Shown piece after piece: positions 8,781 through 10,721 of a DNA stretch of 32,856 bases (positions within the stretch are counted from its first letter, which is position 1; each line of letters begins with the position of its first letter). The position numbers and the translations under genes were made by a program. The notes under the pieces were generated by a model. The model was not told the origin of the DNA and searched no databases. It was given only the letters and a program-made list of their open reading frames with translations. This DNA is from Promethearchaeota archaeon (GTDB taxonomy: Archaea; Asgardarchaeota; Lokiarchaeia; Sigyniarchaeales; SOKP01), in assembly GCA_013375475.1 (NCBI GenBank), contig JABXKD010000039.1, forward strand, positions 1-32,856. The letters are read 5' to 3'.

Positions 8781-10721
8781 ATGGAAAAATCTGAAAATCA
8801 TCGGATTGGATACTATGCTTGCCAGTGAGGAATTAACATTAAGAGGAAAGTAGATTGCGATAAACTAGTAGAGTTTGCGAAAGATCTAGATGATGTTGTG
8901 ATATCTAAAACTCACGCTTTTCTGTGAACAGAAGGCGGACAACAGGCAATAATAGATGATATTAAGGAAAAAAATCTTGATTGCATTGTGGCGTCAGCTT
9001 GAACTCCTCGGACCCACGAACCAATATATAGAGGCTCAATTTCTAAAACTGACTTAAATCCTTACCACTTTCAAATGGTAAATGTAAGAGAGCACTGTTC
9101 TTGGTGTACAGAAGATAGCGAAGAGGCGTTAGATAAAGCTAAAATCCTTGTTAAAAGCGGCGTTAATAGAGCAAAAACTTTAGAAGCTGTCCCAGTGAGA
9201 AGAGTCCCAGTTGAGAAAGCCACAATGGTAGTTGGTGGAGGAATAGCTGGAATGAACGCAGCATTGGACCTTGCAAACGGAGGGATTAAAGTATATCTCA
9301 TCGAAAGTAAAACAACTATAGGCGGTAGAATGGCTCAATTAGATAGAACGTTTCCTACCGACGACTGTTCTATATGAATCTGCGGACCTGTTATGCTCGA
9401 AGTCAATCGGAACGAAAATATAGAAATTCTTAGCTATAGTGACGTGAAAAGAGTAGATGGGTTCGTAGGGAATTATAATGTGACAGTGGAAAAGAAACCT
9501 AGATATGTAAACAATGACTGTAATGGCTGTGGCGCTTGTACGGAAGTTTGTCCCATTATTACTTCTAATTACTTTGACGAACATTTAGGACCACGAAGAG
9601 CAATAGACATCGCATTTGGACAGGCGGTTCCCTTCTTATACGACATTAACCGTGATGTGTGCGTTGAATGTTTCAGTTGCGTTGAAGCTTGTGAGTTAGA
9701 CGCGATAGATTTCAGTCAGGTACCCGAAGAAGTCAATTTCAAAGTGGGTACAATCATCGTAGCAACTGGGTGGAACATTCACGAGCCGTTCGGAGAGTAT
9801 GGATACGGAGAATTTGAAAATGTCATAACTCAATCCCAACTCGAAAGAATTCTAGCTCCAAATGGACCCCTAGAAGGTCATACCCATAGAATTTCGGATT
9901 CAAAAGAGCCCGAAGAAATTGTGTTTATTCAATGTGTGGGGAGTCGGGACACTGAGAGACCTTATTGTAGCGGTGTTTGTTGTATGCTAGCCTTAAAAAA
10001 CGGAAAATTGCTTAAAGAAGAATTCCCAAACGCCAACATTACCATATGTTATATAGACATGAGAACTAACGAAAAAGGCTTCGAAGAATATTATCAAAGA
10101 GCTAAAGAATCTGATATCAAGATGATTCGTGGAAAAGTAGGCGAATTTTCTGAAGACCCAGAAACTAAAAACATAAATATACGCGTTTACTCGACATTAA
10201 CTGACGAAATCATAAAAATCAGCGCAGATTTAGTTGTACTGTCGACAGCTGCACTACCTTCAAAGGGCACAGAACAGATTTCTAGGATATTAAATTTAGA
10301 CTCTGATCGAAATGGATTTTTAACCGAGTCTCACTTTGGATTAATGCCGCAAGAAACTAAAACTAAAGGAATTTTCATCGCAGGATTCGCCCAAGGTCCT
10401 AAAGACATAGCCTACTCTGTTTCTCAAGCGAGAGCTGCCGCAAGTAAGGTAGCTGAATTAACAGCTCCAGGAGAAGTAGACATTGAACTAATTATTGCAG
10501 AAGTTAATAATGATCTTTGCATTAGCTGTGGAAGGTGTGAAAAAGCTTGCCCAAAAAATGCTATAACGGTTGTTGATGAAGAGGGTGCCGTAGTTGACGA
10601 AATAAATTGCGATGGCTGCGGAATTTGTGCTAGCTGTTGCCCGACTAACGCCATAGATATTAGATATTTTAAAGATTATCAGTTATTTACTGAAATTGAC
10701 GGAATGCTGGAGGGAGGTTAA
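8781..10721 (+). CDS. hdrA: Heterodisulfide reductase subunit A-like selenoprotein (646 aa, 4 Sec)
   Basis: One continuous frame from ATG 8781 (GAGGTGGAG upstream) to TAA 10721. In-frame TGA at 8826 (CQUGINI), 8925 (FLUTEG), 9000 (ASAUTPRTHE) and 9375 (FPTDDCSIUI), each matching a Cys in the paralogue at 15198. Also GGGIAG FAD motif, QCVGSRD, YCSGVCC and ferredoxin motifs. Joins track ORFs 9075 and 9393. Confidence 0.93.

Follow-up and report, generated by a model that had tools for sequence, protein, structure and literature searches.

A predicted four-selenocysteine HdrA and its VhuD partner in a Lokiarchaeia-lineage genome, with extra selenocysteines at candidate ligand positions of the N-terminal [4Fe-4S] cluster

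How can an open reading frame (ORF) interrupted by four TGA codons give rise to a full-length HdrA, and what might the residues inserted at these codons contribute to the enzyme? These questions are raised by the hdrA gene located at positions 8781-10721 (plus strand) of contig JABXKD010000039.1 of a Promethearchaeota archaeon. The window, that is, the whole stretch of DNA analyzed, is 32,856 nucleotides (nt) long and belongs to a genome of 288 contigs (G000). We consider it highly probable that hdrA and the vhuD gene located just downstream form a live selenoprotein pair, in which the six UGA codons would be read as selenocysteine (Sec) with the help of a single selenocysteine insertion sequence (SECIS), giving a full HdrA whose N-terminal [4Fe-4S] cluster would have selenolates for three or more of its four ligands; the assignment of these ligands, taken separately, is an even call.

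Once TGA is translated as Sec (U), positions 8781-10721 form a single frame of 646 codons ending with a TAA stop (10719-10721) and carrying TGA at codons 16 (8826-8828), 49 (8925-8927), 74 (9000-9002) and 199 (9375-9377), the last of which is the canonical Sec codon. This agrees with the translation proposed in the initial annotation, as does the finding that all four TGA codons lie opposite a cysteine (Cys) of the paralogue encoded at 15198-18305, with which BLASTP gave the motif pairs CQUGINI/CHCGINI, FLUTE/YSCSS, SAUTPRTHE/ASCTPRTHE, and DCSIUI/DCSLCI. Since Cys or Sec occupies 33 of the 646 HdrA columns, the probability that four random positions would all fall on such columns is about (33/646)^4 = 7e-6, which excludes chance. 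In-frame TGA codons are present in hdrA (four) and vhuD (two) and in none of the other 25 of the 27 ORFs listed in the window, which argues that TGA is not a general sense codon here; these 27 ORFs end with TAA (17 cases), TAG (nine), or TGA (one). Translation table 11 splits hdrA into short ORFs, such as 9075-9377 and 9393-10721, and standard gene calling therefore breaks up the gene, as had been anticipated. The conserved start codon is that at 8781, with a further in-frame ATG upstream at 8694; the open frames of the orthologues measure 648-694 amino acids, as compared with the 646-residue match, and 648-659 amino acids in 20 of 22 cases.

Contigs assembled from other public DNA runs are letter-identical to the window over the hdrA TGA codons: where they cover these sites they read TGA, and not TGT or TGC. 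Record 1 of X2 matches positions 8804-9346 with no differences and record 4 of X2 covers 9317-9565, with two X2 differences at the depth of this record, at 9505 and 9518, while record 9 of X4, which comes from another study, matches 9335-9615 with no differences. These three contigs are independent of the window, and the four-TGA frame of hdrA is confirmed.

The TGA codons are conserved in related genomes. HdrA was searched for in six frames in 41 related genomes, including the own genome, and a codon-by-codon table was drawn up for 30 loci, consisting of 23 orthologues (79-100% identity, own locus included) and seven distant copies (48-52%). The closest 22 other genomes yielded full-length HdrA matches with 3-5 internal TGA codons, along with many paralogues containing 0-3. 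Sites 16, 74, and 199 are TGA in all 23 orthologous loci, whereas site 49 alternates between TGA (18 loci) and TGY, i.e., TGT or TGC (five loci); the codons of Cys14 and Cys196 are TGY in all 23. In the seven distant copies, site 199 is always TGA, which makes 30 out of 30 loci for this site, and sites 16, 49, and 74 are TGA in three, three, and two copies, respectively, and TGY in the others. A scan of genome records gave 80 loci, most of which are titled Promethearchaeota or Promethearchaeia, and 72 of which could be scored; this set probably overlaps with that of the 23 orthologues, and the two are not independent samples. All 72 have U at positions 16, 74, and 199, and at position 49 there are 52 with U and 20 with C. 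Three of the unscored loci are cut by contig ends (L111, L123, and L133); four others, which show short inserts or frame breaks (L093, L105, L126, and L130), retain U at positions 16, 49, 74, and 199, and in L088, the N-terminus of which cannot be aligned before codon 38, C is present at 49 and U at 74 and 199. The closest relatives among the records show 97-77% identity over the 442 C-terminal residues of HdrA, and the Promethearchaeota titles of the HdrA relatives support a Loki-lineage Asgard archaeon as the source of the window.

Purifying selection was observed on both sides of the last TGA codon. In the two least saturated pairs of loci, L020-L022 and L020-L024, the Nei-Gojobori dN/dS ratios (nonsynonymous to synonymous substitution rates) are 0.046 and 0.030, respectively, over codons 17-198, and 0.034 and 0.028 over codons 200-646, the overall range being 0.03-0.06 on both sides.

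The vhuD (mvhD) gene, at 10726-11181 on the plus strand, has 151 codons. It starts 4 nt past the hdrA stop, without any gene overlap, and is preceded, within the end of hdrA, by a Shine-Dalgarno-like element, GAGGGAGG (10710-10717), which was read from the sequence and may have this role. TGA is present at codons 15 (10768-10770) and 66 (10921-10923), and the stop codon is also a TGA (11179-11181). The protein matches the Pfam family FlpD (PF02662) with 141.5 bits. Residues U15 and U66 correspond to the positions given as X (Sec) in the Methanococcus maripaludis VhuD chain 9sfi_K, and U15 is aligned with Cys16 of the M. marburgensis MvhD. The idea that HdrA's N-terminal domain might be homologous to VhuD was also considered and dropped: with a BLASTP E value of 2.3 and a local profile-profile probability of 2.9%, homology between the Sec columns of HdrA and VhuD is not demonstrable.

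A SECIS hairpin of the Loki type, which would be shared by both genes, is located at 11178-11212 (plus strand). It is made up of ATGA, which begins at 11178 and contains the stop codon of vhuD, the first strand of a 9-position stem (one U.U and eight Watson-Crick pairs), the loop AAAAATTATAG (11 nt), the second strand of the stem, and a GA (11211-11212). It is present at an equal distance in 22 of the 23 orthologous loci, the 23rd of which stops at a contig end. In these 22 loci, 93.3% of the stem cells are paired, whereas sliding the partner strand never gave more than 52.8%; four of the nine pairs have changed on both sides (14 cells), and the covariation score was reached by none of 500 shuffles, in a set of 22 related sequences aligned in a register chosen from the motif. 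The support for this SECIS comes from covariation, since its folding energy is indistinguishable from that of shuffled sequences. The element overlaps the vhuD stop, and the recoded codons are 0.26 to 2.35 kb upstream of it, so that hdrA and vhuD would have to be read from one transcript.

As a check on specificity, the other strict SECIS look-alikes in the own genome were examined; they were found behind a second two-Sec VhuD gene (C282), a Prx-like UxxC gene with the motif WUSHC (C229), SelD (C155), and a small U-containing ORF (C224), whereas looser ones lie within ordinary ORFs. The look-alike following the Prx-like gene is at C229:8009-8043 (minus strand), and that at C224:4497-4531 (minus strand) follows a small hydrophobic ORF with an open segment of 71 residues and a TGA in GGGGUPSTC, which is possibly a small membrane selenoprotein. 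Contigs of runs X2 and X4 match the window until 11212 and then continue with unlike sequence, and one X2 contig matches only from 11178; the SECIS flanks thus vary between strains while the hairpin is kept.

Counterparts of all the components of the archaeal-eukaryal Sec pathway, the search for which was suggested in the initial annotation, were located in the genome. SepSecS (C230:25440-26741, minus strand) exceeds its cut-off with 473 bits. Also above the cut-off are two SelD genes that lie in tandem (C155:1918-2715 and C155:3424-4218, both on the minus strand) and contain a single internal TGA apiece; several selD genes have been reported in Loki and Thor archaea (PMC11227280). A longer-looped SECIS-like hairpin is present near these SelD genes, at C155:1662-1699. 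A full-length PSTK-like protein and a SelB-like (EFSec-like) GTPase complete the set of proteins.

The tRNA-Sec gene (C230:26824-26970, minus strand) lies beside SepSecS and was detected by blastn with tRNA-Sec sequences of the same genus, which matched in two pieces. Two inserts interrupt it, one of 28 nt within the anticodon loop and the other of 30 nt within the T-loop. Without both inserts it measures 89 nt, 78 of which are identical to those of the same-genus reference, which itself passes the Rfam cut-off, and it has the same 9/4 cloverleaf as this reference, with compensatory changes in the acceptor stem. The two-insert form has a full-length match in 10 of the 41 same-genus genomes, own included, and the part with the T-loop insert alone was matched in five more, the remainder being uninterrupted; the Rfam model RF01852 exceeds its cut-off in 24 of the 41 related genomes. 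A 31-nt T-loop intron is the sole intron reported for the Loki tRNA-Sec by Mariotti et al. (2016), and heavily interrupted tRNA genes have been described in Asgard archaea (preprint 10.64898/2026.10.13.758758).

From these data we infer that all six internal UGA codons of the two genes would be decoded as Sec by the archaeal-eukaryal pathway (tRNA-Sec, PSTK, SepSecS, SelD, and EFSec), and that a single eukaryote-like kink-turn SECIS (11178-11212) would direct the recoding in both. Several results weigh against this proposal. The PSTK-like protein (168 bits) is under its NCBIfam cut-off, selB is the best family of the EFSec-like GTPase with 227 bits, just under the 242-bit cut-off, and VhuD reaches 161 bits with the NCBIfam VhuD model, as against a cut-off of 215. 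The tRNA-Sec was recognized only after its two inserts had been removed computationally, having been missed by ARAGORN (run on the own genome and L003) and by RF01852 (run on the own genome). The folding energy of the SECIS hairpin is ordinary (z = -0.68, with 43 of 200 shuffles folding as well or better), and a scan of the whole window with Rfam 15, which may or may not include a model of the Loki SECIS, gave no match at E<=1. Some portions of hdrA, vhuD, and the SECIS are also covered by metatranscriptome contigs (X6 and X8), which were not used as evidence, since contigs from RNA libraries show neither transcription, nor strand, nor the existence of a single transcript. The evidence for Sec insertion at the six codons is at the level of the sequence.

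How else could the TGA codons be explained? The fragmentation of the frame under translation table 11 (9075-9377 and 9393-10721) is what would be expected of a decaying pseudogene or an assembly error, in which case only the 442-codon tail (9393-10721) would be expressed. The TGAs are found, however, at identical columns in the 22 other genomes and in the 72 record loci, the region upstream of the last hdrA TGA is under the same strong constraint (dN/dS 0.03-0.06) as the rest, and independent contigs carry the same letters. The pseudogene reading was rejected on the basis of these conservation and selection data, which, with the identical contigs, also exclude misassembly and a code in which TGA is reassigned; we put the chances of this whole explanation close to nil. 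Conservation of TGA in the relatives had been named as a decisive point when the gene was first annotated, and the outcome favors recoding. It is also conceivable that UGA is read without any selenium, as Cys or tryptophan by near-cognate tRNAs, or that TGA is a sense codon in a variant code. This is consistent with the rarity of TGA as a stop in the window (one of 27 ORFs) and with the fact that the selenium reading is based on sequences, but in-frame TGAs are confined to two of the 27 ORFs, where they always stand at Cys columns and are exchanged for no codons other than TGT and TGC, a full set of Sec-pathway genes is present along with a dedicated SECIS supported by covariation, and the same positions of VhuD and HdrA are Sec (X) in the solved M. 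maripaludis chains. We therefore regard this explanation as very unlikely.

The predicted product of the recoded frame is a full-length HdrA. The best match among the solved chains was 9sfi_A (E = 2.5e-200, residues 7-644), and strong matches were also obtained with 5odc_A (9.4e-193), 8rvu_a (3.8e-187), and 7bkb_A (4.2e-169). The Pfam families Pyr_redox_2, NAD_binding_8, and FAD_oxidored matched at residues 148-189, the motif VVGGGIAGM of the flavin adenine dinucleotide (FAD)-binding Rossmann fold is aligned with the solved chains, and Fer4-type matches (CxxCxxCxxxC) were found in the inserted domain (241-305) and the C-terminal domain (572-627). The protein would thus be the FAD/iron-sulfur (Fe-S) subunit performing flavin-based electron bifurcation.

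The first 240 residues of HdrA were aligned with five distinct solved HdrA sequences. In the numbering of 5ODC (chain A), U16, U49, U74, and U199 correspond to Cys13, Cys46, Cys71, and Cys197, and Cys14 and Cys196 to Cys11 and Cys194. All these six positions are Cys in the five solved HdrAs, and four of them are Sec here. The only Cys residues present in the N-terminal domain of all five are C11, C13, C46, and C71, and positions 26, 68, 106, and 109 are not conserved. The statement that the three extra Sec residues replace conserved Cys residues of the N-terminal domain is therefore borne out, these columns being invariant in the solved proteins. The comparison made with the Sec of methanococcal HdrA at the DCSxU position also holds, since U199 is X197 of 9sfi_A, called Sec197 in PMC13518236; the same residue is Cys205 in 8rvu. 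On this basis, U199 would be the canonical Sec of the CxxU pair adjoining the flavin, and U16, U49, and U74, together with Cys14, would account for all four positions at which the N-terminal domain has an invariant Cys.

Which residues, then, bind the N-terminal cluster? A [4Fe-4S] cluster, A3, has been reported within this domain (PMC13518236), and its ligands have been described as Cys residues of the N-terminal domain and Cys197 of the partner protomer (Chadwick et al., 2022; PMC9012536). The same cluster, HA3, has been called an isolated "shuttle cluster," which accepts the strongly reducing electron of the flavosemiquinone and, by means of a mobile arm, transports it towards HA5' and HA6' (PMC13580544). 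With a cluster located in the N-terminal domain and Cys197 provided by the partner, the ligands here would be drawn from residues 14, 16, 49, and 74, plus residue 199 of the partner. If three N-terminal residues and 199' were involved, at least two of the three N-terminal Sec residues would be ligands in addition to the Sec at 199'; if all four N-terminal residues were involved, three ligands would be Sec. In either arrangement, at least three of the four HA3 ligands would be selenolates (either U16, U49, and U74 or a pair of them along with the partner's U199, with all four being Sec in one arrangement), a prediction that we judge to be evenly balanced.

Other HdrA sequences lend further support to this prediction. 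Column 300, which is the third Cys of the CxxCxxCxxxC motif in the inserted ferredoxin domain, is TGA in the copy at C282:7683-9602 (plus strand) in the own genome, in L024, and in three of the 72 record loci, and column 613 is TGA in one record locus. The presence of TGA at column 300 suggests that the HdrA family tolerates Sec at a textbook Fe-S ligand position. The Sec residues occur in various subsets: in the own genome, {16,49,74,199} was found in the present protein, {16,49,199} in C30, {16,199,300} in C282, and {16,199} in C281, and the copies on C256, C144, C55, and C277 are all-Cys, while among the paralogues the subsets are {199}, {16,199}, {49,199}, {16,49,199}, {49,74,199}, and {16,74,199}.

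The proposal of the initial annotation that the cluster could be ligated mainly by selenolates is soundly based, as a prediction, and is made more specific here. The positions of the sites, mapped by sequence alignment onto the structures, and the statement by Chadwick et al. (2022) are in its favor, whereas the two cryo-electron microscopy (cryo-EM) papers published in 2026 treat residue 197 as part of a separate pair: the Cys/Sec pair 194/197 is described there in terms of an unknown density or a Se-S bridge between the cluster and the flavin, and not as an HA3 ligand (PMC13518236 and PMC13580544). Several other points weigh against ligation by selenolates. The Sec sites were declared not to be cluster ligands by Mariotti et al. 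(2016; PMC4989117), before any HdrA structure was available; one figure legend places HA3 at the "C terminus" (PMC12350162); and, if the partner residue 197 binds the cluster, one of the four invariant N-terminal positions may be spare. The ligand assignment is based on alignments and published statements rather than on coordinates, and the open papers, in the extracts consulted, yielded the general statement in PMC9012536 and no explicit list of the residues binding the N-terminal cluster.

The same observations can be accommodated by a true multi-Sec HdrA in which the extra Sec residues are not ligands but form a selenol, selenylsulfide, or diselenide relay between the [2Fe-2S] cluster of VhuD, the N-terminal domain, and FAD. 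The Sec sites were taken to be "multiple catalytic Cys residues" in PMC4989117; in the cryo-EM study on the M. maripaludis enzyme, a feature was observed between Sec197 and a Cys and a selenylsulfide relay was suggested (PMC13518236), and a Cys202/Cys205 pair with an unknown ligand has been described (PMC13580544). In addition, Cys16 of MvhD, which is equivalent to U15 of the present VhuD, is an additional non-ligand Cys (PMC13580544), and the use of the partner Cys197 as a ligand would leave one of the four invariant N-terminal Cys residues free. This explanation has to contend with the [4Fe-4S] cluster reported in the N-terminal domain (PMC9012536 and PMC13518236): since this domain contains only four invariant Cys positions, three of which are Sec here, no more than one or two extra Sec residues could be free, and the Sec at column 300 of the paralogues indicates that the family does place Sec at Fe-S ligand positions. 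We look upon the relay as a possible but rather doubtful explanation.

If, as we propose, selenolates bind the N-terminal cluster, the extra Sec residues would be not scattered "catalytic" residues, but residues at the predicted ligand positions of the cluster that handles the strongly reducing electron. A full-text literature search retrieved no report of Sec acting as an Fe-S cluster ligand in HdrA, and as far as this search showed, the cluster would be the first in nature to have protein selenolates as most of its ligands. The relatives with Cys at position 49 and the Sec subsets of the paralogues would then constitute a natural graded series of S-to-Se ligands on one cluster of an electron-bifurcating enzyme, with which the effect of ligand chemistry on the potential, or on the oxygen or sulfide tolerance, of the low-potential branch could be directly tested. 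Selenolate-ligated synthetic cubanes are slightly easier to reduce, and a shift in the redox potential might occur in this HdrA. The present results also give a practical warning, since the hdrA, SECIS, and tRNA-Sec of these genomes escape standard gene calling and scans for tRNAs and RNA families.

As regards the neighborhood, an aldehyde:ferredoxin oxidoreductase gene (4720-6513, minus strand) and another FrhB-like gene are present upstream of hdrA. Behind hdrA and vhuD come two genes of the FrhB/FdhB type (11295-12776 and 12801-13913), then a CCG-domain HdrB-like gene (14140-15198), the paralogue already mentioned, which is a fused double HdrA of 1035 residues (15198-18305, plus strand), and an all-Cys MvhD gene (18308-18745, plus strand). 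No mvhA or mvhG genes (encoding the large and small hydrogenase subunits) were found among the eight window ORFs scanned against Pfam. In the double HdrA, the first half has the DCSLC pair and lacks the N-terminal domain, an Fe-S domain of the N-terminal type is located in mid-protein, and the second half lacks the Cys pair. This arrangement is that of the "complementary" HdrA fusions described in ANME and Moorella (Chadwick et al., 2022).

Inserts of 30-39 nt were observed in the hdrA genes of four relatives, at L093:967-1005, L126:2651-2689, L105:2672-2706 and 2366-2395, and L130:2673-2706. They introduce an in-frame TAA in L093 and L126 and a frame shift in L105 and L130, and one of those in L105 is located just before the Sec16 codon. 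An insert is present near codons 100-107 in four of the 95 anchored hdrA loci, and the hdrA of the window is free of it. The inserts are of the same size as the tRNA-Sec introns, and in L105 and L130 the exon sequences on either side of them pair together. These inserts may be endonuclease-cut mRNA introns, or else assembly or strain artifacts; mRNA introns were not mentioned in the papers retrieved by the literature search or in the extract of the preprint 10.64898/2026.10.13.758758.

Multi-Sec HdrA-VhuD pairs with a shared SECIS are of a kind that is already known (2016 and 2024). In Lokiarchaeota, HdrA has been reported to contain up to four Sec residues distributed over five possible positions, the canonical one near position 200 being present each time, with a UAA or UAG stop in all cases; VhuD is always immediately downstream, and a single lokiSECIS after VhuD serves as many as six UGA codons spread over some 2 kb (Mariotti et al., 2016; PMC4989117). 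In a catalog of 1439 Asgard selenoproteins, HdrA and FrhD/VhuD are the commonest and are always SECIS-sharing neighbors (PMC11227280). The present locus shows the same features: a four-Sec HdrA with the Sec residues at Cys columns and a stop other than UGA, a two-Sec VhuD downstream on the same strand, a SECIS after VhuD only, and a tRNA-Sec with a T-loop intron. Its SECIS (11178-11212) also fits the description given of the lokiSECIS, in which a stem of 9 bp joins the AUGA...GA core to a loop of 11 nt beginning with A's (PMC4989117). Since it matches that paper on every point, the hdrA finding is a correct rediscovery, which confirms the published work on multi-Sec Loki HdrA and on two genes with six UGA codons depending on one eukaryote-like SECIS. 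What is added here is a re-reading of the extra Sec residues with the HdrA structures that appeared after 2016: Mariotti et al. (2016) held that the Sec sites were not ligands, whereas the mapping onto the later structures suggests that they are. The locus, which comes from another genome of the lineage, also differs in that the two genes are 4 nt apart, whereas HdrA.3 overlaps VhuD.3 by 28 nt (PMC4989117), and in that the tRNA-Sec has a second insert, in the anticodon loop.

Among the solved enzymes, M. maripaludis HdrA and VhuD (9sfi chains A and K; PMC13518236) resemble the present pair in fold, domain order, the Sec of the CxxU motif, and both Sec residues of VhuD, but have Cys at the three N-terminal sites of HdrA. 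The 5ODC structure and those of the M. marburgensis enzyme determined by cryo-EM (8RVU and 9SW2-6), with which all the Fe-S-binding and FAD motifs are aligned, supply the frame used here, namely HA3, Cys197 (M. marburgensis Cys205), and the mechanism based on a mobile arm. Unlike the predicted Loki protein, these enzymes contain only Cys and come from methanogens reducing CoM-S-S-CoB. 5ODC is the HdrABC-MvhAGD crystal structure of Wagner et al. (2017); its organism is given as M. wolfeii in PMC9012536.

As far as recoding is concerned, methanococcal genes have an archaeal-type SECIS, with one per gene. A parallel exists with eukaryotic multi-Sec proteins such as selenoprotein P (cited in PMC4989117), in which a kink-turn SECIS located in the 3'-UTR, and likewise having AUGA...GA as its core, recodes several UGA codons a long way off. 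SBP2 was not found in Loki according to PMC4989117, and no search for it was made here. In contrast with the eukaryotic multi-Sec proteins, the single SECIS of the hdrA-vhuD pair would serve two cistrons in a prokaryote.

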